In this document: in pieces, positions 2,390 through 12,587 of the stretch
Layout: each line of letters begins with the position of its first letter
Position numbering within the stretch: position 1 is the first letter of the stretch
Origin: Candidatus Dojkabacteria bacterium
Lineage (GTDB): Bacteria > Patescibacteriota > Dojkabacteria > B142 > JAFGMG01
Direction: 5' to 3'
Length of the DNA stretch: 64,000 nt
NCBI GenBank assembly: GCA_016927655.1
Contig: JAFGMG010000001.1
Span: forward strand, 115,599-179,598
Position numbers and translations under genes: made by a program
Notes under the pieces: model-generated
Databases searched by the model: none
The model's input: only the letters and a program-made list of their open reading frames with translations
Told to the model about the DNA's origin: nothing

Positions 2390-3352
2390 TTACAAGTAGC
2401 CTGCTACTTGAGAATACCAGTTGGCGGCAATGATCGAATACCCGGATGTGTTCGGATGAGTTGAATCATACATCAGACTCGTTTTTGCCTGATGAGTCGA
2501 TGTATCATACAAATCCGACCAATTTGCAGTGAAGTATTTGTCATCTCCGGTAATTGAACTTGCCAATTTAGTGTTATAGTAAGAAATTGCCAGAGATCCC
2601 CATGTATCATATAAATTATTCGGAATAAATGCCGACAGAATCAATTTCGGATGGCTGCCATCCGGATTTGTGTGAGCTTTAACGGTATTTACTATCTGCT
2701 GGACCTCAGAAGCAGTTTGATTAACTACTGCATTAATTGTGTAAATATCGGCTTCTGCTATATCATTGCCGCCAACCATTAAAAGGACTACCTCTGGATT
2801 GTACTGGTTCAACCAGATGGATGTATTTGCCAGCACATTTTCTGCTTTGTAGCCATTTACGGCTTTGTTCACAACTGTGTATTCACCTGAGCCAAAAGCA
2901 CTATTAATTGAAGCCTGTAACTTTGCCGGATAGGTGCTTGAAGAGCCATTATATGGATAGCCGGCTGTAACGCTGTCTCCAAGGCATACAATATTTTCCG
3001 GCTCAGGCTCTGGAGTTGGTGCCGGAGTCGGCGTCGGGGCTGGCGTCGGAGTAGTTCCATCCTCAGTTCCATCCAAATCCTGCGAATTTGAACCAACACT
3101 GGAAGTACTATCTGTGTCAGATCGCCCCGCCCCATCTGGCAGATAAATATTTGCATTATCCCCTCTTCCATCAATATCAAAATTATAATTAATTTCCCCT
3201 TCCTCTGCTGCGCTTACATCCTGTTCATCCTGCTTATCATTGACAAAGACCCTAATCCAGCTGATTAAAACCAACAAAAACAAAGTAAAAATCAAAAACC
3301 CTACAAAAATCAGCCTGACATTTTTAGTTAGTCTTTTTTTTATCGACGTCAT
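2390..3352 (-). CDS. SGNH/GDSL family hydrolase with Pro-Thr-rich linker and N-terminal TM anchor
   Basis: GDSVTAGY block (GDSx catalytic Ser motif). TPTPAPTPTPAPTPEPEPE linker. N-terminal hydrophobic helix. Confidence 0.75.
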   Translation of the reverse strand: MTSIKKRLTKNVRLIFVGFLIFTLFLLVLISWIRVFVNDKQDEQDVSAAEEGEINYNFDIDGRGDNANIYLPDGAGRSDTDSTSSVGSNSQDLDGTEDGTTPTPAPTPTPAPTPEPEPENIVCLGDSVTAGYPYNGSSSTYPAKLQASINSAFGSGEYTVVNKAVNGYKAENVLANTSIWLNQYNPEVVLLMVGGNDIAEADIYTINAVVNQTASEVQQIVNTVKAHTNPDGSHPKLILSAFIPNNLYDTWGSLAISYYNTKLASSITGDDKYFTANWSDLYDTSTHQAKTSLMYDSTHPNTSGYSIIAANWYSQVAGYL

Positions 3353-3356
3353 CTAT

Positions 3357-4403
3357 TTACCTGCTATACAAAATTACAAATGTTCCACTTTCAAGAATGG
3401 CAACTCCCGGGTCTGCACCGTCCACTCTAGTGCCGGACTCCATAGTCCAACTCACCCCATCAGGCGAAATCGCGGATTTGACTCCATTGTCCGTTCCATA
3501 AAACCTCAATTTCCCCCCAATATTTATCACATCTCCAAGAAAAGTCATATCCGCATAAACGTCATCCTGTTGTATAAAGTCTATTCCTGTAGAAGATGTT
3601 GAATGAACATTCTTTTTTGTGCCGCTTACAGGCGCCGCACTCAGATCTTCCCCCGCTTCATGGAATGCTGTGTAATGGTGCCAGACACCATCGAAATACA
3701 CGACTGCAGGATCAAGGACCATCTGGCTTACCTCCAGCTGTTGCCCTTCGCTGACAAAAGTCCCATCAATTGTATCCGCCTTTGCGGAATATAGATTTGG
3801 GAACGCATCTCCCGGTGTCTGATATGTGAAATACAATCTGAAAGTGCCATCCTCTAGCTGCACCAAAGTAGGATCGACCGGATTTGGATTCGCCTCCATT
3901 TTTTGCGTGCTGCTTGTCAACCCGCTAAATTCAACTTTTTTAATTTTCGACCATGTTTGTCCACCGTCAGCAGAGATTGTGTAAACAATCTTGTCAAAAA
4001 GGCCCTCATTTACAAAAGAAAAATATTGGAAAGTTGCAATCAGATCTCCATCCCTGGTCGTTATCAGATTTGGGACGCCAGAATGACTCATGAAAAATTT
4101 ATCACCTGTAAAATCAAGTCCGTTGTTTGAACTCGAAAGATAGATATCCCCGTTCCATGGACCGGTATCAGCATTTTCCCCTCTTGCGATCCAGGCAGGC
4201 ATAGTATTGGTATCCTGTTCAAACACATCAGGTTCTAGGGAATAATCAATTTCCAAAATACTATTTTGACTGTCTTGTTTTTCATCATTCAAATCCTCTT
4301 TTTCATTGTCCCCAGGCAGCAAGAAAACTGCAATAAGTACGCCCAACAGGACAAGAAGGAATATAATTACCCCAATAAGCACCACTATAATTTTCCTGCT
4401 CAT
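3357..4403 (-). CDS. BNR-repeat (sialidase-like) glycosyl hydrolase, membrane anchored
   Basis: SADGGQTW matches the BNR/Asp-box SxDxGxTW. N-terminal TM helix. Beta-propeller-like composition. Confidence 0.55.
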   Translation of the reverse strand: MSRKIIVVLIGVIIFLLVLLGVLIAVFLLPGDNEKEDLNDEKQDSQNSILEIDYSLEPDVFEQDTNTMPAWIARGENADTGPWNGDIYLSSSNNGLDFTGDKFFMSHSGVPNLITTRDGDLIATFQYFSFVNEGLFDKIVYTISADGGQTWSKIKKVEFSGLTSSTQKMEANPNPVDPTLVQLEDGTFRLYFTYQTPGDAFPNLYSAKADTIDGTFVSEGQQLEVSQMVLDPAVVYFDGVWHHYTAFHEAGEDLSAAPVSGTKKNVHSTSSTGIDFIQQDDVYADMTFLGDVINIGGKLRFYGTDNGVKSAISPDGVSWTMESGTRVDGADPGVAILESGTFVILYSR

Positions 4404-4501
4404 CTAAAACTAATTAATAAATATTTACTCATTATAAAGAGCCTGCAGTCTTAAGTAAAACAAAATGGACACTAATGAATCGTATTTTGTATAATCATCA
4501 T

Positions 4502-5116
4502 ATGTGCTACAGATACTATATCGGGACGAATTTTTATATTGAAAAAAGGTTTTCTACTGTGCCCTTCGGGCTGGGACTGCAGCCAAATCTCAGTGCTTCC
4601 CCATCTCAGTTCCTGCCGATTATCCGCGAATCTGCAGAAGGCAGAAAAATTTCACTCGCTAAATGGGGACTGATTCCCTCGTGGGCCAAAAACGATGATT
4701 TTGCAAGTAAACTCGCCAATGCGAGATTGGAAAGTATCGAGACCAAACCATCGTTCGCAAGACCGTTTAAATTTAAGCGCTGCATTGTGCCAGTTTCCGG
4801 CTTCTATGAGTGGGAGCACAGGGAAGGAGAAAAGATCAAATACTCAATTGAACCAGAAGATGGAAATGGCTTTGGACTTGCAGGACTATGGGATGAGTGG
4901 ATGCCTCCAAACGGAGATCCAATCATAAGCTATACGATTCTAACCACCAATCCTACCCCTAAAATAAAGAAAATTCACCAGAGAATGCCAGTGATTCTTG
5001 AAAATGACGAGGAAAGTATTTGGCTTGCAGAGGACAGCAAGACAGATTCGCTAAAGCAATTATTTGATCCATATCCGTATAGAAAACTCAAAGTCTTTCA
5101 AACAGAAACCCACTAA
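4502..5116 (+). CDS. SOS response-associated peptidase (SRAP/YedK-type abasic-site processing protein)
   Basis: WGLIPSWAK and FYEW motifs of the SRAP family. The listed ORF starts at 4475, but the family's catalytic Met-Cys N-terminus corresponds to the MC at 4502-4507, so the start is probably 4502. Confidence 0.75.
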   Translation: MCYRYYIGTNFYIEKRFSTVPFGLGLQPNLSASPSQFLPIIRESAEGRKISLAKWGLIPSWAKNDDFASKLANARLESIETKPSFARPFKFKRCIVPVSGFYEWEHREGEKIKYSIEPEDGNGFGLAGLWDEWMPPNGDPIISYTILTTNPTPKIKKIHQRMPVILENDEESIWLAEDSKTDSLKQLFDPYPYRKLKVFQTETH

Positions 5117-6259: not shown

Positions 6260-7027
6260 CTATCCTCTCAATGTCCCCGAGAAAACCTGCCATGCCAGGG
6301 CCGACTTGGCAAGCAGACTCAAAACTATATACATTCTTTCTCCAAACAAGTAATTTCTCCAGGGCCCGATTTTTTTGTACTGAAGGAACATATTGATAGC
6401 AAAAATATTGAAAAACAAGAAAAGCGAAATCAAAATTCCATAGACAAAAGTTGGAACTGAGTCTGAATAATTGTTAAGCGCTCCGTAGAAATACATTGCG
6501 ATAACGATCCAAGGAACAATTCCTGCAATGCAGCCAAATACAAAGCTCAGCCAGTTTGTTTTCTTTGTGGTTTGATTGTGCACTTCCATGATAAGCCCAA
6601 AGAAAATCATCATGGCGTTTAAAGTAAATATCAAAATCAAACTTGATAAATCATACATCCCGGAAAGCATAGCAATAATAACAATCATTAAAGAAGAACT
6701 GAAAGCATACTCATACCATCTAAGATAGTTGATTTTCTTTTTAAGATTCTCAACGTACCACTCATAAACAACCGGTAAAGTGAGCAGGAGATGCGCTAGT
6801 GCGGATATAAACAAGAACCCCGCTACTACAGGACCAATTTGAAGAGATGCCACCTCAACCGCATTTGGTGCAACGGAATTTTGGAAAGAATCATAGTCAA
6901 GATAAGAGGTTGTAATCGGCAGACTAAAACCATTACTTAAAACAAGCATTAAAACACCTTGAGCAAAATGTAAAATGGCCATAATGCCATTAAAGATTCT
7001 CAGATTCCGGAATTTCGTTTCGTCCAT
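6260..7027 (-). CDS. Heliorhodopsin (7-TM retinal protein, inverted topology)
   Basis: 255 aa, seven predicted TM helices. Strong similarity to heliorhodopsin hallmark segments: WYEYAFSSSLMIVIIA, FGCIAGIVPW, GERMYIVLSLLAKSALAWQVFSGTL (Lys in last helix = Schiff-base position). Confidence 0.8.
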   Translation of the reverse strand: MDETKFRNLRIFNGIMAILHFAQGVLMLVLSNGFSLPITTSYLDYDSFQNSVAPNAVEVASLQIGPVVAGFLFISALAHLLLTLPVVYEWYVENLKKKINYLRWYEYAFSSSLMIVIIAMLSGMYDLSSLILIFTLNAMMIFFGLIMEVHNQTTKKTNWLSFVFGCIAGIVPWIVIAMYFYGALNNYSDSVPTFVYGILISLFLFFNIFAINMFLQYKKIGPWRNYLFGERMYIVLSLLAKSALAWQVFSGTLRG

Positions 7028-7138
7028 AAAAAAAAATTAAAATATTAAATAGTCCGAGCTGCAAATTGCTCATTCACATAATAAAGAAAATGATGCGGAA
7101 AAGCAAAAGTGTTATAATTAAGGCAGAGTTTCGATGCA

Positions 7139-7211
7139 GCGCCTGTAGCTCAATGGATAGAGCAACGGTCTTCGGAACCGTAGGTTGGGGGTTCGACTCC
7201 CTTCGGGCGCA
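7139..7211 (+). tRNA. tRNA-Arg (anticodon TCG)
   Basis: Cloverleaf folded by eye: acceptor gcgcctg/cgggcgc, D-arm gctc-aatggata-gagc, anticodon arm acggt-CTTCGGA-accgt, T-loop ttcgact. 73 nt, no encoded CCA. Confidence 0.7.
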
Positions 7212-7347
7212 CATTTTATGATAAAATCGACAGTTTTCCTCCCGGATCAAATGACCAAAAGGAATTTGATCCGAAAAGGAGAAGACCACGGAAGCTAAAA
7301 TAAATGAGTTTACGAATTTATGTAAGCTGAAGTGCGTCTTCGACGCA

Positions 7348-7419
7348 GGGTTCGTAGCTCAATGGTAGAGCAACCGGCTCTTAACCGGTAGGTTGTGGGT
7401 TCGAGTCCCACCGGACTCA
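7348..7419 (+). tRNA. tRNA-Lys (anticodon CTT)
   Basis: Acceptor gggttcg/cggactc, D-arm gctc-aatggta-gagc, anticodon arm accgg-CTCTTAA-ccggt, T-arm gtggg-ttcgagt-cccac. 72 nt. Confidence 0.7.
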
Positions 7420-7435
7420 CGTTTTTTAACTGGGA

Positions 7436-8290
7436 TCAAACTACCTCCGTCTGTATTTGTTCTTGAACAAATTGCAAAGGCGTTTCCTTTTCGATTATTC
7501 TGACAAATTTTGAATCTTTTGAATGAGAAAGAAGATCCTGTAGCAGCTCTTTCCGTTTGATAAACGCTTCTATTTTTCCTTCTTTATACAAAGCCTTGTA
7601 GCTGTCATCCATTACCTCTACAATCGTAACCGCATTTGCATTGTGTCTTTCTACACCGGTTGCAATCACTAAAGAGTACGCATCAGGATCGGTAAATCTA
7701 TCATTGGCAAGAATTATAGAGGCCAGAGCTTCACTTGCATTGGCTTCAACAAATGTTTCTTTATCTATTGGGTTTGCGTATATGAAGTCAACTTCCTTTG
7801 GGAACGGGTTAAAATCCGTATCATTTGAGATCAGTACAATTTTCAGATGTTTCCCAAAATGCTCTCTTAATAATTTAACCACTCCTGCTGTCAGTGATGT
7901 ATAGCCGTAAATTACTACATGGTTGCTGTAGCCGATTCGAATTATTCCCTTTTCTCTTCGATCATATGTAATTCTGATTAGATCTGCGACTTCTGAAATA
8001 ACAATAGCCAGCAGAACCAACCCGGAAGCTATAACCAGAGCACCAAGAATTTTTCCTTCTACTGTGACTGGATACACATCTCCATATCCAAGTCCGGAAA
8101 TTGTCACAATCCACCACCAGAACATCTCTCCAAACGAATCGAACTGGATATTGACATCTCTTTCAACAGCAAAAACAATAAAGGTTATAGACAAAGAAAT
8201 TACGACTGTTATAGATATCCAGGCGAAAGAGTGTTTGATTCTATCTGTAATCTGCCTATTGAAACTGACCTTTTTCATAATTTCATTCAT
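7436..8290 (-). CDS. Potassium channel (2-TM pore with GYGD filter) fused to cytoplasmic RCK/TrkA-like domain
   Basis: TISGLGYGDVYPVT selectivity-filter motif. Two TM helices flank the pore helix. C-terminal Rossmann-like domain. Confidence 0.75.
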   Translation of the reverse strand: MNEIMKKVSFNRQITDRIKHSFAWISITVVISLSITFIVFAVERDVNIQFDSFGEMFWWWIVTISGLGYGDVYPVTVEGKILGALVIASGLVLLAIVISEVADLIRITYDRREKGIIRIGYSNHVVIYGYTSLTAGVVKLLREHFGKHLKIVLISNDTDFNPFPKEVDFIYANPIDKETFVEANASEALASIILANDRFTDPDAYSLVIATGVERHNANAVTIVEVMDDSYKALYKEGKIEAFIKRKELLQDLLSHSKDSKFVRIIEKETPLQFVQEQIQTEVV

Positions 8291-8401
8291 GAGAATACTT
8301 ACTAATAGATGAAAGCAGTATAGCTAAAAGATGAGGGAAAGTTAAGAAGAGAACAAATCTCAATGAGATATAGAATGCCTATTTACGAATAGATAGCTAT
8401 A

Positions 8402-8653
8402 GTGGTAGAATCGAGAAATTTTTATCACAGAATAATGAGTATACAACCTGGACCTGAATGCTCAGCAGTTGGGTGTCCTTTCGAGGGAAATTGTATACTT
8501 GACCCCAAGGTACCAGCACAAATTATTGCGGACATCGCCCGGGAAAATGGGATGCAGGGACAACTTATTAGATGCCCTAGATCTCCGAACTATGATCTCG
8601 AGGGAACCTTAGAAGAAATACGGACCCAAGAAAATGCTCAACAACCAGAATAA
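8402..8653 (+). CDS. Hypothetical small protein (Cys-containing, slightly higher GC)
   Basis: ORF only; no recognisable family. Start may be the internal Met at about 8435. Located between the K+ channel and tRNA-Leu. Confidence 0.25.
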   Translation: MVESRNFYHRIMSIQPGPECSAVGCPFEGNCILDPKVPAQIIADIARENGMQGQLIRCPRSPNYDLEGTLEEIRTQENAQQPE

Positions 8654-8771
8654 ATTACTTGGCAAATTTATTGTTTTGGGTACTGATCCACAACTACTAT
8701 AATAATCTTCTAATTCTAGCTTCTCAGCTAAATGATGTAAATGGTATAATTCTGCTGCTGTTTAACAATAT

Positions 8772-8859
8772 GCAGACGTGGTGGAATTGGTAGACACGCT
8801 ACCTTGAGGTGGTAGTGCCCATAATTACGGGTGTGGAGGTTCAAATCCTCTCGTCTGCA
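8772..8859 (+). tRNA. tRNA-Leu (anticodon GAG), long variable arm
   Basis: Acceptor gcagacg/cgtctgc, anticodon arm ctacc-TTGAGGT-ggtag, long variable arm tgcccataattacgggtg, T-loop ttcaaat. 88 nt. Confidence 0.7.
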
Positions 8860-8890
8860 CTTAAAAGATTAGCAGAAATCCAAAATTTTC

Positions 8891-8899
8891 TGATATAAT
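8891..8899 (+). promoter_or_regulatory. Extended -10 promoter-like element (TGaTATAAT) upstream of the tRNA fragment / GIY-YIG gene
   Basis: tgatataat at 8891-8899, with a weak -35-like ttagca at 8869-8874 (19-nt spacer). Sits 14 nt upstream of the tRNA-like fragment. Confidence 0.35.
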
Positions 8900-8912
8900 C
8901 TTTATGTCCTTT

Positions 8913-8968
8913 GGGGTTGTAGCTCAATTGGTTAGAGCATCCCGGTCTTACCGGGAGGGTCGCGAGTT
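8913..8968 (+). pseudogene. Truncated tRNA gene copy (5' acceptor, D-arm, Lys-CTT-type anticodon arm, T-stem 5' strand) interrupted in the T-loop
   Basis: The first 27 nt (ggggttgtagctcaattggttagagca) are identical to intact tRNA-Asp at 9230. The anticodon arm tcccg-GTCTTAC-cggga carries a Lys(CTT) anticodon. Sequence follows the tRNA through gcgag-tt, then diverges (ttagaattggcac-ATG), so there is no 3' acceptor strand. Confidence 0.55.
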
Positions 8969-8981
8969 TTAGAATTGGCAC

Positions 8982-9239
8982 ATGTTTGCAGTTTATATAC
9001 TAAAAAGTGAAAAATTTGACCGATATTATATTGGGAGTACAGGAAATATCAAAGATCGTCTGAGAAGGCATAACGAAGGGAGAGAAAAATATACAAAGAA
9101 ATATGCACCTTGGGAACTAAAATATAAAAAATATTTTAATACAAGATCAGAAGCAGTACGATTTGAGAATCATATAAAGGAACAGAAGGATAGAAGTTAC
9201 ATTGAAAACTTAATCTTAGAAGAGAAAGCGGGGTTGTAG
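8982..9239 (+). CDS. Small GIY-YIG nuclease-family protein (YhbQ/UPF0213-like, 85 aa)
   Basis: N-terminal VYILKSEKFDRYYIGSTGNIKDRLRRHNEG = GIY-(x10)-YIG motif with conserved Arg and His/Asn. The stop codon TAG (9237-9239) lies inside tRNA-Asp. Confidence 0.8.
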   Translation: MFAVYILKSEKFDRYYIGSTGNIKDRLRRHNEGREKYTKKYAPWELKYKKYFNTRSEAVRFENHIKEQKDRSYIENLILEEKAGL

Positions 9240-9303
9240 CTCAATTGGTTAGAGCACTCGCCTGTCACGCGAGAGGTCGCGAGTTCGAATCTCGTCAGCC
9301 CCG
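9230..9303 (+). tRNA. tRNA-Asp (anticodon GTC)
   Basis: Acceptor ggggttg/cagcccc (one G-U pair), D-arm gctc-aattggtta-gagc, anticodon arm ctcgc-CTGTCAC-gcgag, T-arm gcgag-ttcgaat-ctcgt, discriminator G. 74 nt. Confidence 0.8.
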
Positions 9304-9560
9304 CTTTCTCTTTTCATTATTCCCATTTCAATTGATTAAAGCATCCCGGTCTTACCGGGAAGGTCGCGAGTCCCGGTAAATCCATAGATTTACCGAGGAT
9401 CCTCGATTTTGTAACCAAAATAAAATTTTGGATAAAATCGGGATTCGAATCTCGTCAGCCCCGCTTTCTCTTTTCATTATTCCCATTTCAATTAATTAGA
9501 GCATCCCGGTCTTACCGGGAAGGTCGCGAGTCCCGCTAAATCCATAGATTTACCGAGGAT
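9284..9560 (+). repeat. Two tandem copies (period 160 bp, about 117 bp each, about 97% identical) of a unit containing the tRNA-Asp T-loop/3' end, a degenerate D-arm, and a Lys(CTT)-type anticodon arm + T-stem fragment
   Basis: 9284-9400 and 9444-9560 align with 3 mismatches. Each contains ttcgaatctcgtcagccccg, then ctttctcttttcattattcccatttcaatt.att.a.gca, then tcccggtcttaccgggaaggtcgcgag, then a hairpin ggtaaatc-cata-gatttacc. There is no 5' acceptor strand, so they cannot fold as tRNAs. Confidence 0.7.
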
Positions 9561-9623
9561 GCCCGAATGGGTGCCCCGCCACTTATTATCGACTCCCATA
9601 TTCCTTCCTGCTAAAATACCCAC

Positions 9624-10346
9624 ATGGAACTTAAAATCTTTAGTCTAAATTGCTGGCTCTTGCCGCCGCCCTTTTCGATAAACAACCAAAAAAGACTGAA
9701 CAATATTGTTTCAACAATCAAAGTATGCCGCCCGGATATAATCGCTTTACAAGAAATCTGGCTTAATAGATATATCAAAGAAATTGAAGAGCGATTGCAG
9801 GGATATTCCTTTGTAAAATCCAATTCAAGTATTATTAATAAAAGCGGCCTTCTAACAGGTATTAGAAAAGAAGCTGCAGATTTCGAAGTTAATTATTTCC
9901 CGCAGCATTCAGAATATGGACTGTTTGAGAAGATAGCCCGCAAAGGCTATCATACAATCAAATTAAATGAAGATCTATCATTTATCAATACCCATCTATA
10001 CTGCTCAAGAGCTATGACCGGCGAACTTATAAAAAAGACTCAATTCAAATTCCTCCAAAAATTATTCCCCACTCAAAAAGTAATCCTTGGAGGAGATTTA
10101 AATATTAATGAAAAATTACTTGCGAAATTAAATACAAGATTTGTATATGACAAATCACAAGGATCGACAGTTTCTTATACAAACGCTCTAACTAGAGCGA
10201 GATTCAATAGATTTGGCGTTCCAGATCATAAAGTTGATTATATTCTCATCTCAAAGGATACCGGCGCATCAATAACAACCAGGTATATCAAAAACCCAAT
10301 CGTATCAGATCATTACATGCTGCTATCAGATGTTAAAATAACATAA
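9624..10346 (+). CDS. Endonuclease/exonuclease/phosphatase (EEP) family protein
   Basis: N-terminal IFSLNCW...DIIALQEIW is the conserved EEP fold start (Mg-binding Asn/Glu). C-terminal SDHY motif. Stop overlaps the start of the next gene (taATGg). Confidence 0.6.
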   Translation: MELKIFSLNCWLLPPPFSINNQKRLNNIVSTIKVCRPDIIALQEIWLNRYIKEIEERLQGYSFVKSNSSIINKSGLLTGIRKEAADFEVNYFPQHSEYGLFEKIARKGYHTIKLNEDLSFINTHLYCSRAMTGELIKKTQFKFLQKLFPTQKVILGGDLNINEKLLAKLNTRFVYDKSQGSTVSYTNALTRARFNRFGVPDHKVDYILISKDTGASITTRYIKNPIVSDHYMLLSDVKIT

Positions 10347-11851
10347 TGGAATTCATGAAACGTCACAAAGAAACAATTACAACAGGTCTTATCATCCTTT
10401 TTGGAGCAGGACTTCGACTGGTCAATATCAGTGCACCGGATTTCTGGCGGGACGAGGCCTTTACCCTTCGTGCTGCAACTATGCAGTTTGGAGATATGTG
10501 GAGCTCACTTACGGCTGATACAGCTCCGCCGCTCTTTACTCTAATTTTGCATTACTGGTTGAAAATTGTCCCGTTAACAGAGTTATCGGCCAGAATTCCG
10601 TCATTTATTTTTGGAGTGGCAACGATCTATTTTGCATACCTGCTTGCCAAACAGCTTTTCCCATATAACAGGAAATACATTTATCTAACTGTAATATTAA
10701 CCGCACTCAATCCAGTATTGATTTTCTATTCACAGGAAGCACGCGCATATTCACTACTCTCACTCCTTGCAACCATTTCACTCTATTTGGTTTTCAAAAT
10801 TACCACACAACCTAAAACCAAAACTTTTGTCTGGGTATTATTAAGTATCATAACAATTCTAGGCCTTTACACTCACAACCTGTTTATTTTCATTGCTTTT
10901 GTAAATGGCTTGATAATTTTCGCTTCAAGAGCAAACCTTAAAGATCTCAAACAGACTGCTAAAAGAAATATTCCATTGGCTTTAGCGTATCTTGCAGTAG
11001 GCATAGTATTTCTGCCGTGGTTTCTCGTATTTCTCGAGCAGTCCAAAACTGTCTCACAAGGCGGATTCTGGCTGACCCTTGATCCGGTCAATGACCCAGC
11101 CAAGCTTTTGACTGACACATTCTCAGGCGAGCAGATTTGGATGGAGAGCGAACTATTTCGTAGTGTTCTAAAATATTTCTCAGACATTCTTGCAGGACTA
11201 TTTACAGCAGGCAGTTTTATTATAATTTATAAACAACGACAGAATGATAAATTCAACCAAAAACTCGCGGCATTATTGTTTTGGATATTTGCAAATTTTT
11301 TGATAGTTTATCTCTACAGCTTCAAAACTTCATTTATCTATATCAGATATCTTATTTATCTGATTGTTCCCGCACTCATAATTACAACCATACCTCTTCT
11401 AAATCTCAACCTCAATAAAACTCTGAAATACATTTTCACCGCATTCGTAATTGGAAGTCTTTCCATTTTTTCAGTAATTACACTTAGGAACATTCCAAAT
11501 TCAAAGGCTCCAATGAAAGACCTGATAGCCCAAGTTGAGGTATTAAACAGCGAAGAGAGTTTAATATTGCATTCTCACGCATATACAAATCACGGCTTTA
11601 AGATTTACTCGAATTTGCGAAGTCAGATTTATAACCCGCAAGATAATCTGCCTTATTATGAAGGCCTGGCCGTATTGAGTGAAGATGATTATTTTAGACA
11701 AACTGCGGTGGCTGGCTACAAACAAGTCTTTGTAATCTATCTTTGGGATGAGGATCAGGATTTAGCCGGCGAACTTGAGAAAAATTACAAAAAGTCAGAT
11801 AATTACGACTATTCTGGAAATCTGCATTTAGATATTTGGACATTAAAATAA
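10346..11851 (+). CDS. GT39/GT83-like membrane glycosyltransferase (PMT/ArnT-type polyprenyl-phosphate-sugar:acceptor transferase)
   Basis: About 12 predicted TM helices. Conserved first-loop RDEAFTLRAA (DE motif of PMT_2/ArnT families). About 500 aa. Confidence 0.6.
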   Translation: MEFMKRHKETITTGLIILFGAGLRLVNISAPDFWRDEAFTLRAATMQFGDMWSSLTADTAPPLFTLILHYWLKIVPLTELSARIPSFIFGVATIYFAYLLAKQLFPYNRKYIYLTVILTALNPVLIFYSQEARAYSLLSLLATISLYLVFKITTQPKTKTFVWVLLSIITILGLYTHNLFIFIAFVNGLIIFASRANLKDLKQTAKRNIPLALAYLAVGIVFLPWFLVFLEQSKTVSQGGFWLTLDPVNDPAKLLTDTFSGEQIWMESELFRSVLKYFSDILAGLFTAGSFIIIYKQRQNDKFNQKLAALLFWIFANFLIVYLYSFKTSFIYIRYLIYLIVPALIITTIPLLNLNLNKTLKYIFTAFVIGSLSIFSVITLRNIPNSKAPMKDLIAQVEVLNSEESLILHSHAYTNHGFKIYSNLRSQIYNPQDNLPYYEGLAVLSEDDYFRQTAVAGYKQVFVIYLWDEDQDLAGELEKNYKKSDNYDYSGNLHLDIWTLK

Positions 11852-11855
11852 CTTC

Positions 11856-12587
11856 ATGAAAAAAACAACTCTAGTCATTCCAACTTTCAACGAAAAAGAA
11901 AATATCGGACCCCTTCTAGAAAGAATTCAAAAAGTCTCGAATGAGAGTCTCAAAGATTTAACTGAACTGAGCATACTTTTCGTCGACGACAGTTCTCCTG
12001 ATGGTACTCAGGATGAAATCCGCCGGGAAGCAGAAAAATACACAAGAGATTTTGAAATTGATATTTTATCTCGAGAAGAAAAAACCGGACTTGGGACCGC
12101 CTATATAGCCGGCTTCAAAAAAGCTATTGCGAGAGGCGCAGATTATATCGTTCAAATGGATGGCGACTTATCTCATGAGCCAGAAGTGGTATCTGAAATG
12201 ATCAAAGCCCTCAAGACGCATGATTTTGTAATAGGTTCAAGATACATCAAAGGCGGTCAGCTTCCAAAATGGAGCTTTGTTAGAAAGATGATCAGCAAAG
12301 GCGGAAATCTGTATTCAAGAATTATCCTTGGGTTTAATGTGCGGGACTATACGGGCGGGTTTAACGGTTATCAAAGAAAGGTTTTAGAGACAATCAAGCT
12401 GGATGAAATAAAGAGCAATGGCTATGCTTTTCAAATTGAAATGAAGTACCGGGCAAAAAAAGCAGGATTTAAATTCCTGGAAATTCCAATTCACTTTAGA
12501 GACCGGACACACGGGAGCTCAAAGTTCTCAAGGAATATTTTTATCGAAGCACTTATAAATACTCTGCGACTGAAATTTACAATTTGA
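11856..12587 (+). CDS. GT2 polyprenol-phosphate glycosyltransferase (Dpm1/GtrB-like dolichol-phosphate mannose synthase type)
   Basis: LVIPTFNEKENI, VDDSSPDGT and DGDLSHEPE motifs characteristic of Dpm1-like GT2 enzymes. About 240 aa soluble form. Confidence 0.8.
   Translation: MKKTTLVIPTFNEKENIGPLLERIQKVSNESLKDLTELSILFVDDSSPDGTQDEIRREAEKYTRDFEIDILSREEKTGLGTAYIAGFKKAIARGADYIVQMDGDLSHEPEVVSEMIKALKTHDFVIGSRYIKGGQLPKWSFVRKMISKGGNLYSRIILGFNVRDYTGGFNGYQRKVLETIKLDEIKSNGYAFQIEMKYRAKKAGFKFLEIPIHFRDRTHGSSKFSRNIFIEALINTLRLKFTI

Follow-up and report, generated by a model that had tools for sequence, protein, structure and literature searches.

Slx1 is a structure-specific nuclease that acts on branched and stem-loop DNA, and we know of no established function for the bacterial UPF0213 proteins. 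In the literature searched, neither linkage to tRNA genes nor hairpin-bearing pseudo-tRNAs have been reported for UPF0213 proteins. By analogy, the closest precedent for the locus presented here is phage SegB, which recognises the T-psi-C stem-loop motif in tRNA genes and takes flanking tRNA genes along when it homes (PMC2330249), and for which recombination-dependent tandem amplification of tRNA plus segB units has been described (PMC13096335). SegB was the only comparable case in the searched literature, where small GIY-YIG genes welded to tRNA genes and hairpin-substituted pseudo-tRNAs are otherwise undescribed. Since the layout described below recurs beside many tRNAs in many bacterial phyla and no description of it was found, it appears to represent a new type of selfish cassette that rides on tRNA genes.

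The window is a 64,000-nt stretch of a Candidatus Dojkabacteria bacterium genome (GCA_016927655.1, contig JAFGMG010000001.1, positions 115,599 to 179,598, forward strand). The locus of interest contains, in order, a candidate promoter, a hairpin-bearing 5' fragment of tRNA-Asp, a nuclease ORF, the intact tRNA-Asp and two hairpin-bearing tRNA-Asp remnants that lack an ORF (Table 1). It is a cassette in which a GIY-YIG gene of approximately 85 aa, of the Slx1/UPF0213 type, is joined to a tRNA and flanked by hairpin-substituted partial copies of that same tRNA. The favoured reading, to which a probability of roughly 55% is assigned, is that the locus belongs to a widespread family of tiny selfish, homing-like cassettes that ride a tRNA transcription unit.

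Table 1. Features of the tRNA-Asp cassette locus, in window coordinates.
Feature	Position	Strand	Basis or remark
Extended -10-like element, TGATATAAT	8891-8899	+	Sequence only; 14 nt 5' of the tRNA fragment; candidate promoter
5' pseudo-copy of tRNA-Asp, canonical positions 1-55, anticodon arm substituted	8913-8968	+	Repeat identity
Family hairpin 1, TCCCGGT-CTT-ACCGGGA (TCCCGGTCTTACCGGGA, 17 nt)	8940-8956	+	7-bp stem, CTT triloop (predicted fold)
GIY-YIG nuclease ORF, 85 aa	8982-9239	+	ORF list; catalytic domain alone
17-bp inverted repeat, 9220-9236 / 9296-9312	9220-9312	+	94% complementary
Intact tRNA-Asp(GTC)	9230-9304	+	ARAGORN; Rfam 73.2 bits, full-length
Two 123-nt direct repeats, 9284-9406 / 9444-9566	9284-9566	+	96% identical, 160-nt period
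Second pseudo-copy of tRNA-Asp, D-loop to T-stem 5' strand	9331-9372	+	Same hairpin at 9344-9360
Double-hairpin module within T-loop of second pseudo-copy	9371-9443	+	Sequence and comparison with L195
Hairpin A, TCCCG...CG-A-GGA, bulged A	9371-9399	+	
Hairpin B, TCC-T-CG...CGGGA	9400-9443	+	
Second tRNA-Asp 3' end (T-loop, T-stem 3' strand, 3' acceptor strand)	9444-9464	+	Exact 21-nt repeat of 9284-9304
Third pseudo-copy of tRNA-Asp, whole	9491-9583	+	Repeat comparison

An earlier note on this DNA had recognised the tRNA fragment upstream of the ORF, and its extent holds: 8913-8939 is identical to 9230-9256 at 27/27 positions, 8957-8968 (GGGTCGCGAGTT) matches tRNA positions 44-55 at 11/12 with a single mismatch, and similarity to tRNA-Asp ends past T54-T55. 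The intact tRNA-Asp was recovered by ARAGORN and Rfam alike, while the fragment scored only 20.6 bits against the Rfam tRNA model (threshold 29) and ARAGORN made no tRNA call there. The note also took the anticodon arm of the fragment for a Lys(CTT) type, which proved mistaken, as it differs from the arm of the genuine tRNA-Lys(CTT) at 7348. It is instead a 7-bp hairpin with a CTT triloop and the TCCCG...CGGGA feet found throughout the family, and it exactly substitutes for tRNA positions 27-43. Almost no credence can be given to the idea that the fragment is part of a genuine split, permuted or intron-containing tRNA, spliced to a 3' half further downstream (9444-9464, for instance). In sequence, the fragment can pair with the free 3' end in both the acceptor and the T stem, but neither ARAGORN nor Rfam joins the halves or calls an intron-containing tRNA, a call that by the earlier note would have refuted its reading, and the substituted arm has a 3-nt loop rather than an anticodon loop. 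Hairpins in relatives likewise have 3-4-nt loops, many copies have no partner half and, to our knowledge, bacteria lack the archaeal splicing endonuclease pathway.

The ORF begins with an ATG at 8982, 13 nt past the fragment, and its TAG stop codon (9237-9239) coincides with U8-A9-G10 of tRNA-Asp, such that ORF and tRNA overlap by 10 nt; both placements agree with the earlier note, as does the presence of TGATATAAT upstream. This element was not listed by the consensus promoter scan because it has no -35 match, and it is regarded as a candidate promoter of a fragment-ORF-tRNA-Asp transcript. No terminator-like site is predicted between tRNA-Leu(GAG) (8772-8860) and 9700, so read-through into the locus from the promoter-like site of tRNA-Leu (8721-8750) is also possible on sequence grounds. 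The inverted repeat around tRNA-Asp lengthens its acceptor helix by 10 bp, into the final ORF codons (AAGAGAAAGC) on one side and the 3' trailer (GCTTTCTCTT) on the other; it pairs in the predicted RNA fold and was seen in none of the relatives examined.

Downstream of tRNA-Asp lie several features that the earlier note did not mention, namely the fragments at 9331-9372 and 9491-9532, the double-hairpin insertion in the T-loop, the second tRNA 3' end and the 123-nt direct repeat. The second 3' end completes the second pseudo-copy, and the direct repeats are tandem units of spacer plus pseudo-tRNA without an ORF. The third pseudo-copy comprises a D-loop to T-stem part with the hairpin at 9504-9520, a copy of hairpin A at 9531-9559 and a degenerate tRNA 3' end with a terminal CCA (9560-9583). 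These repeats are not due to chance: the window has three copies of the 17-nt arm, where 0.04 would be expected, and two of the tRNA-Asp 3' end, where the expectation is 0.

The ORF product is 100% identical to an NCBI entry named 'GIY-YIG nuclease family protein [Candidatus Dojkabacteria bacterium]' and matches Pfam PF01541 (GIY-YIG) with E=2.5e-16 and 60.2 bits (cut-off 22.6), confirming the family named in the earlier note. Residues Y5, Y16, G18, R26, H30 and E62 are invariant among 11 homologs and correspond to the conserved GIY-YIG catalytic residues, and the AF2 model (pLDDT 91.4; E2-9, E15-20, H23-31, E44-52, H55-67, H71-82) has the beta-beta-alpha...beta-alpha GIY-YIG fold. The best phmmer match was UPF0213 protein BH0048 (1ZG2, E=5.7e-5), with Slx1 at approximately 0.02. 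Foldseek placed 1ZG2 first and Slx1 with it in ranks 1-10 (29-36% identity), followed by I-TevI and UvrC in ranks 11-15 (14-20% identity), and the model superposes on the Slx1 nuclease domain with an rmsd of 1.7-3 A. The NCBIfam model TIGR01453 gave 15.8 bits (cut-off 56) and the PHROGs library gave no match. From sequence and model, the protein is a predicted nuclease consisting of an Slx1/UPF0213-type catalytic domain (URI branch) without a DNA-binding domain. An I-TevI/Seg-type homing endonuclease was considered and rejected, as the protein is 85 aa in total and has neither the linker nor the C-terminal DNA-binding domain. The free-standing GIY-YIG element proposed in the earlier note stands as a small gene beside a tRNA with partial duplication, but not as a homing enzyme of that type.

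A search for related loci, built on a five-sequence nuclease alignment, returned 68 homologous loci, 51 of which (48/65 when redundant loci are removed) have a tRNA within 400 nt, nearly always on the same strand; the recurrent tRNA adjacency raised in the earlier note is thus strongly borne out. The linked tRNAs represent more than 12 species, and the hosts span many phyla, including Patescibacteria/CPR, Bacteroidota and Chloroflexota, with Dyadobacter linearis, Maribacter algicola and Lunatimonas salinarum among cultured carriers. An intact tRNA lies upstream of the ORF in 27 loci (ending -1 to 90 nt before it) and downstream in 12 (starting -23 to +21 nt after it); 14 of the 27 upstream cases have a T-run terminator between tRNA and ORF. 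The ORF is bounded by partial copies of the neighbouring tRNA, with 5' fragments upstream and 3' fragments downstream, and these copies sometimes include locus-specific flank (9 nt in L041). In these copies TCCCG...CGGGA hairpins exactly replace the anticodon arm, often in tandem arrays, and sometimes the T- or D-loop is hairpin-replaced too. Among 59 hairpin-bearing copies, 30 of the 33 upstream ones start at position 1, and upstream copies end at about positions 52-57; downstream copies begin in the D arm and often reach the 3' end. The window follows this polarity, as its 5' pseudo-copy runs from position 1 to the T stem/loop and its second pseudo-copy starts in the D arm. Tandem arrays comprise five units of 81 nt (L014), five of 80 nt at 100% identity lying between a promoter-like site and the tRNA (L040), three of 109 nt (L034) and, in L013, four units of 329 nt that each contain terminator, ORF and pseudo-tRNA.

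Such recurrence already contradicts the notion that the pieces are ordinary scars, i.e. integrase att duplications or random tandem duplication and decay next to an unrelated GIY-YIG gene, which is accordingly held to be very improbable. Fragments of tRNA genes do often stem from integrative elements (PMC9897764), and scars of this kind are present at two related loci, L003 and L200, the latter with a tRNA-Pro reduced to its 3' part from the anticodon loop. However, ORFs and tRNA fragments are associated, with a specific hairpin, in dozens of independent loci. At the window locus itself an integrase-type att duplication was rejected: the ORFs in 7000-12000 include no recombinase gene, and what precedes the ORF is a 5' piece of the tRNA, just 0.3 kb away from the intact gene, whereas 3' att repeats bound kilobase-scale islands.

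Across taxa, nuclease subclades group according to the species of the neighbouring tRNA (Pro-TGG, Asp, Val, Ala-GGC, Gln-TTG and Pro-GGG), and so show fidelity to a single conserved target across hosts. The Asp clade unites the window (Dojkabacteria) with L021 (Zixibacteria), L001, L003 and L194, the last being the closest relative, whose nuclease is 56% identical and which is arranged in the same way at tRNA-Asp. In conserved tRNA-Val/tRNA-Asp pairs the ORF is found on either side of tRNA-Asp, and ORF-less derivatives occur, both of which are indirect signs of presence/absence polymorphism. No empty site was recovered for the window or the related loci searched, so the case for mobility is built on distribution and architecture: no relative with synteny to the window turned up (homologs of the EEP gene downstream reach 54% identity at most and are non-syntenic), the exact 56-nt tRNA-Asp core had 0 matches in metagenome contigs, and a Dyadobacter search with the AraC-type flank of L041 gave only rearranged loci with different neighbours and no empty allele.

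Within 700 nt of the ORFs the pattern TCCCG-N3-12-CGGGA has 74 occurrences, where shuffled sequences give 0.66. It is present at 34 of the 64 non-redundant relative loci, and the tRNA backbones that bear the hairpin are Asp, Pro, Val, Ala, Gln, Gly, Ile and Met. Stems are 6-8 bp with 3-4-nt loops. Loops and inner pairs covary, whereas the feet stay the same from host to host; the sixth pair is Watson-Crick in 63/74 cases, with all four pair types represented, and G.T wobbles favour the sense strand 13:3. L195 has a conserved counterpart of the double-hairpin module of the window, with covarying stems, placed in the D-loop of a pseudo-tRNA-Met beside a 53%-identical nuclease; the two loci share the module although tRNA and insertion point differ. 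Distant nuclease clades have other feet (TCCGCC/GGCGGA, CCCGCC, CCCCGA). In metagenomes the pattern TCCCG-N-CGGGA-RGGYCGCGAG gave many chance matches in GC-rich coding DNA, and about 21 of 80 examined loci were genuine pseudo-tRNA-Asp. Rfam searches of the window and ten related loci matched tRNA alone, with no ribozyme or known RNA family to explain the hairpins, and ARAGORN labels some hairpin-substituted copies tRNA-Ile(TAT) or tRNA-Asp(ATC).

Conservation of this kind also invites the view, rather unlikely on balance, that the locus is an RNA-protein module, either type III toxin-antitoxin-like or autoregulatory, in which transcribed hairpin-tRNA fragments bind, neutralise or regulate the nuclease. 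The tRNA scaffold would give a strong promoter, processing and stability, arrays would raise RNA dosage, terminators would set the ratio of RNA to protein, and tRNA adjacency would come from duplication of a neighbouring tRNA as RNA partner and not from homing. In keeping with this, feet are kept across hosts as loops and inner pairs covary, wobbles prefer the sense strand, the hairpin module travels with the protein whatever the tRNA species and insertion point, distant clades have feet of their own, the identical-unit array of L040 sits between promoter-like site and tRNA, and the T-run terminators at tRNA-upstream loci recall the toxI-terminator-toxN order. Known type III toxins, however, are ToxN-like endoRNases, not DNases of the GIY-YIG kind. 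The majority of array units are 5' pieces of tRNA, truncated and unable to fold as tRNAs, and the repeats in the window are downstream of the ORF instead of upstream. Alone, such a module would explain neither the fixed-polarity placement of the ORF between local tRNA pieces nor the tracking of tRNA species by nuclease clades across phyla. Membership of the ToxIN-like systems was rejected for the window, where there is a GIY-YIG and not a ToxN fold, no predicted terminator and downstream repeats, and where the resemblance is one of layout only. An RNA-protein module may well be complementary to the selfish-cassette reading rather than exclusive of it.

A host-beneficial tRNA-locus system, serving adaptive tRNA amplification, protection of integration sites or provision of decoys against tRNA-targeting nucleases, appears improbable. 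For phage T6, amplification of tRNA genes by SegB is adaptive (PMC13096335), integration into tRNA genes is common, with integrase-type scars at the same tRNAs in L003 and L200, and PADLOC gives weak matches (E ~1e-4) to the GIY-YIG domain of candidate defence proteins. Those matches nevertheless span only residues 3-38, which form the shared catalytic motif. Conserved partner defence genes are absent near the cassette loci, the amplified units are non-functional pseudo-copies and not intact tRNAs, and the distribution is patchy.

The comparisons demonstrate a recurrent architecture with constant polarity, conservation and covariation of the hairpin, and a link between nuclease subclade and tRNA species, and on the favoured reading of a selfish, homing-like cassette they can be assembled into the following model. 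As the ORF has no room for signals of its own, it would be expressed within the tRNA transcription unit, and RNase P cleavage would truncate the nuclease mRNA, because the stop codon lies inside the tRNA, thereby holding nuclease levels low. The nuclease would cut the DNA of the tRNA gene or its immediate surroundings, the likeliest site being near the T-loop, which is where the 5' fragments end. Recombinational repair could then use the tRNA-derived repeats as homology arms and place a copy of the cassette at the same tRNA gene in other genomes, giving homing-like spread, while out-of-register repair would produce tandem arrays, as has been seen experimentally for phage SegB. Substitution by the hairpin would break homology, limiting deletion of the ORF and inactivating the extra tRNA copy; given that its feet are conserved across hosts, the hairpin probably also provides the nuclease with a site for binding or regulation, in the sense strand or in the transcript.

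Some observations sit uneasily with homing. Characterised homing endonucleases have a DNA-binding domain, which the 85-aa nuclease does not, and the nuclease is always accompanied by an intact tRNA copy that it could presumably cleave. Phage and plasmid collections yielded no nuclease homologs, save one weak viral-contig match, and thus no candidate transfer vector. Pure homing also leaves the cross-phylum conservation of the feet and the sense-strand wobble bias unexplained, indicating an additional role at the level of RNA or single-stranded DNA. It is suggested, tentatively and as less likely than not, that the hairpin-substituted tRNA pieces are functional nucleic-acid partners of the mini-nuclease and not scars, with the tRNA scaffold presenting the TCCCG/CGGGA hairpin, as RNA or folded sense-strand DNA, to recruit, regulate or neutralise the enzyme. 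Such a partner could be an antitoxin-like inhibitor, or could guide or tether the enzyme, leading it by way of the tRNA-derived arms to the cognate tRNA gene, and would represent a new class of RNA-associated nuclease system on the tRNA genes of many bacterial phyla.

If the selfish-cassette reading is right, a very small class of element, approximately 0.3-0.4 kb, has colonised some of the most conserved bacterial genes without destroying them, since the element makes a partial duplicate of the tRNA and is carried by the tRNA transcription unit. It would also provide the first functional context for the large bacterial family of UPF0213/Slx1-like mini-nucleases and account for one type of tRNA prediction that is spurious or odd. 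Furthermore, the conserved hairpin module offers a handle on how a nuclease without a DNA-binding domain finds its substrate.

Set against described systems, the cassette shares with type III toxin-antitoxin systems (ToxIN) its tandem short repeats, a conserved hairpin and an adjoining small nuclease gene, often with a terminator between, but its protein is GIY-YIG and not ToxN in fold, and its repeats are tRNA-derived and lie on either side of the ORF. Integrase-mediated insertion likewise uses a tRNA as landing site, keeps it functional and leaves a partial duplicate; the cassette, however, has no recombinase, an insert of only about 0.3 kb, duplicates that may be 5' fragments, a precise arm-to-hairpin substitution and tandem arrays. 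SegB of T4/T6 resembles it more closely, being a free-standing GIY-YIG nuclease gene amid tRNA genes that recognises the T-psi-C motif, as cassette 5' fragments end at the T-loop, that forms tandem tRNA-nuclease units reminiscent of the arrays, especially L013, and whose homologs are statistically associated with many tRNA isotypes. Hairpin-substituted pseudo-tRNAs, overlap with the tRNA and clade fidelity to one tRNA species are nonetheless unreported for SegB, which is an I-TevI-type phage enzyme with a DNA-binding region, in contrast to the 85-aa Slx1/UPF0213-type domain encoded on bacterial chromosomes. The best sequence and structure matches of the cassette nuclease are with the UPF0213/YhbQ/Slx1 (URI-domain) proteins; Slx1 differs in requiring Slx4 and in having a RING/PHD domain, but its activity on branched and stem-loop DNA would, by analogy, fit a hairpin or cloverleaf substrate.

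On the evidence of sequence comparison, this locus exemplifies a widespread mini-nuclease cassette that is welded to tRNA genes and accompanied by pseudo-tRNAs, i.e. partial tRNA copies in which a hairpin with TCCCG/CGGGA feet replaces the anticodon arm. ARAGORN, Rfam, Pfam and alignment agree with the earlier note on the 5' fragment, the ORF, the intact tRNA-Asp and the stop codon inside the tRNA. The fragment opens with 27 nt identical to the tRNA-Asp start (8913-8939), continues with a substituted 17-nt arm, TCCCGGTCTTACCGGGA (8940-8956), that differs from tRNA-Asp, and matches tRNA positions 44-55 again at 8957-8968, the likeness ending past T54-T55. Its Rfam score is sub-threshold (20.6 bits) and ARAGORN makes no tRNA call on it. 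The ORF starts 13 nt further on, and its TAG coincides with tRNA-Asp positions 8-10. The promoter-type element TGATATAAT is indeed present at 8891-8899, but it has no -35 partner. The window holds one nuclease copy, and an identical database protein is labelled Candidatus Dojkabacteria (a CPR bacterium).

The partial tRNA duplication had been noted only as the 5' fragment, and the downstream copies were overlooked. The 17-nt arm occurs twice more, at 9344-9360 and 9504-9520 (0.04 expected), in pseudo-tRNA-Asp pieces whose T-loops are both broken by another hairpin. With the second tRNA 3' end, these parts make up two 123-nt direct repeats at a period of 160 nt. Furthermore, AAGAGAAAGC, within the last ORF codons, is complementary to GCTTTCTCTT in the tRNA-Asp 3' trailer; the 3' arm of the resulting inverted repeat recurs at 9456-9472, and the inverted repeat was not found in related loci.

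Features of the tRNA-Asp locus in the window
Feature	Coordinates	Basis or remark
5' tRNA-Asp fragment	8913-8968	sequence comparison with 9230-9304
GIY-YIG ORF, 85 codons	start 8982, TAG 9237-9239	Pfam GIY-YIG, E=2.5e-16
17-bp inverted repeat	9220-9236 / 9296-9312	lengthens tRNA-Asp acceptor stem by 10 bp
tRNA-Asp(GTC)	9230-9304	ARAGORN; Rfam tRNA model, 73.2 bits
Pseudo-tRNA-Asp pieces, D-loop to T stem 5' strand	9331-9372, 9491-9532	each encloses one copy of the 17-nt arm
Double-hairpin module	9371-9443	entire T-loop insertion of the first piece
Second tRNA-Asp 3' end, perfect copy	9444-9464	directly after the double-hairpin module

Elsewhere in the neighbourhood, tRNA-Arg(TCG) (7130-7217) and tRNA-Lys(CTT) (7339-7425) resemble each other in leader and trailer (repeat families D3 and D5), suggesting that one tRNA unit was duplicated. 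Of the four tRNA genes, three have sub-threshold Rfam 'Plastid-ycf2' matches on their antisense (minus) strand (7139-7212, 7348-7420 and 8772-8860), which are artefacts of a model that contains tRNA-like sequence. Just downstream, 9624-10346 encodes an endonuclease/exonuclease/phosphatase-family protein whose homologs (51-54% identical) include one in a Woesearchaeota genome and another beside archaeal-type genes (TBP, XPG), a pattern that could stem from genes being shared by CPR bacteria and DPANN archaea.

The closest homologs of the nuclease (45-57% identity) all adjoin tRNA genes. In the closest relative, L194 (L numbers denote related loci holding homologs of the ORF), the layout at tRNA-Asp is exactly that of the window; the D-arm and anticodon-arm sequences are common to both, whereas the acceptor stem, T stem and hairpin interior differ. 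An unbiased search by peptide pattern, covering one genome per species, gave 62 loci among Bacteroidota, Chloroflexota, Patescibacteria, Armatimonadota, Zixibacteria, Leptospirales and others, which with six contigs encoding the closest homologs make a set of 68 (65 non-redundant). The suspected association with tRNAs proved recurrent: a tRNA lies within 400 nt in 51 of the 68 loci (48/65 non-redundant), nearly always on the ORF strand, against our estimate of a few per cent from tRNA density. In 27 loci (type A) the 3' end of an intact tRNA lies -1 to 90 nt ahead of the ORF, the gap being either shorter than 30 nt, too small to accommodate signals, or furnished with a T-run terminator; in 12 (type B), including the window, an intact tRNA starts -23 to +21 nt past the ORF. 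Two approaches recovered no empty site for the window or related loci, and phage and plasmid collections yielded no member of the nuclease family beyond one weak viral-contig match. In L003 a second tRNA-Asp 3' end immediately past the tRNA (3341-3373) abuts a serine recombinase gene (3362-4837); this is a classical att scar, left by a separate integrative element at the very tRNA that hosts the cassette. The tRNA-Pro(GGG) that bears the cassette in L041 is reduced in L200, from a close relative of Dyadobacter linearis, to a 3' remnant starting from the anticodon loop and joined to unrelated DNA (860-912), a disruption of integrase type.

Homologs share invariant catalytic residues, and AlphaFold models the protein with confidence (pLDDT 91). 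Among solved proteins its best matches, in sequence as in structure, are UPF0213 BH0048 and the Slx1 nuclease domain, with I-TevI and UvrC far behind. Protein clustering yields subclades that follow the adjacent tRNA (Pro-TGG, Asp, Val, Ala-GGC, Gln-TTG and Pro-GGG), and the Asp clade holds both a CPR bacterium and a Zixibacterium.

TCCCG-N-CGGGA exactly takes the place of the anticodon arm (positions 27-43) in the pseudo-tRNA copies, and the motif has 74 matches within 700 nt of the ORFs, in 34 of 64 non-redundant loci (0.66 in shuffles). The 76 distinct hairpins have stems of 6-8 bp and loops of 3-4 nt, so they are not anticodon loops; the CTT that the earlier note assigned to a Lys-type anticodon arm is thus a triloop of this family, and that assignment is rejected. 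At the sixth position of the stem, 63 of 74 hairpins have a Watson-Crick pair and all four pair types occur, showing that pairing is under selection. G.T wobbles favour the sense strand 13:3. Similar hairpins lie in the T-loop (L012, L018, L088, L124, L138 and the window) or D-loop (L195, L048, L032), and distant nuclease clades have other feet (TCCGCC/GGCGGA, CCCGCC, CCCCGA). The double-hairpin T-loop module of the window aligns to the D-loop module of a pseudo-tRNA-Met in L195, with the connector CGAGGATCYTCGATT kept and the stems covarying; as the two sit at different tRNAs, hairpin modules travel with the nuclease gene and not with the tRNA.

Partial copies of the adjoining tRNA occur on the ORF flanks with a fixed polarity. 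Among 59 hairpin-bearing copies, 30 of the 33 upstream ones begin at tRNA position 1, and upstream copies end around positions 52-57, in the T stem/loop; downstream copies begin in the D arm and often reach the 3' end. The L041 duplication takes in 9 nt of locus-specific upstream flank and was therefore made in situ. Tandem arrays are found in L014 (5x81 nt), L034 (3x109 nt), L024 (5x131 nt) and L040, where five 100% identical 80-nt pseudo-tRNA-Asn units (1418-1880) separate a promoter-like site from the intact tRNA-Asn. The L040 sequence implies that amplification is very recent or ongoing and that the units would form part of the tRNA leader transcript. In L013 (1226-2610, a Microbacter MAG) four copies of an entire 329-bp unit (terminator, ORF and pseudo-tRNA) stand in tandem behind an intact tRNA-Pro(TGG), and the stop codon of the ORF lies inside the hairpin loop. 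A metagenome scan for the hairpin in tRNA-Asp context matched at least 120 stretches; about 21 of 80 loci examined were genuine, including ORF-less forms with a pseudo-fragment immediately 5' of an intact tRNA-Asp. As explanations of the window locus, the data contradict integrase scars, chance duplication and a split tRNA alike. ARAGORN calls full-length hairpin-substituted copies in L014 (1859-1937 and 2237-2314; Rfam 48-50 bits) and L001 (3246-3325) as tRNA-Ile(TAT) and tRNA-Asp(ATC), so such copies probably contaminate tRNA gene catalogues. A further tRNA-Ile(TAT) call, in L048 (2246-2320), may be a genuine gene.

Taken together, the fixed ORF-tRNA junction, local tRNA duplication of fixed polarity, clade-tRNA fidelity across phyla, ORF-less derivatives and tandem arrays argue for a mobile selfish cassette that would target tRNA genes while sparing one functional copy. 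In taking it for a small GIY-YIG element that inserted or homed beside a tRNA gene, the earlier note was partly right. That the locus instead benefits its host is improbable. ORF expression would depend on the tRNA promoter and, in type B, would be limited by the stop codon inside the tRNA, since RNase P cleavage would give a non-stop mRNA. The hairpin would break up homology between repeats and inactivate the extra tRNA copy. Conservation of the feet and the bias towards the sense strand suggest that it may also be a nuclease binding or regulatory site, the least secure step. Alternatively, the hairpin RNA could be an antitoxin-like or regulatory partner; this would account for the conserved hairpin and the arrays but leaves the duplication polarity and tRNA fidelity unaccounted for, and it is unlikely on its own, although it may complement the selfish-cassette explanation.

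The literature searched, with coverage short of all journals, holds no description of this tRNA-welded architecture. The best-documented analogue is phage SegB, the free-standing GIY-YIG homing endonuclease of the T-even tRNA cluster, which homes, its recognition target being the T-psi-C stem-loop motif in tRNA genes (PMC2330249), and which tandemly amplifies tRNA+segB segments in a recombination-dependent manner (PMC13096335). By this analogy, the cassette nuclease would cut the DNA of tRNA genes close to the T-loop; the cassette would be copied when the break is repaired from a template bearing it, the tRNA-derived repeats serving as arms, and out-of-register repair would expand the arrays. 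The enzyme itself is not of the Seg type: the window nuclease lacks a DNA-binding domain, scores far below threshold against the group I intron endonuclease model, and has its nearest relatives in the UPF0213/Slx1 branch of the GIY-YIG superfamily.
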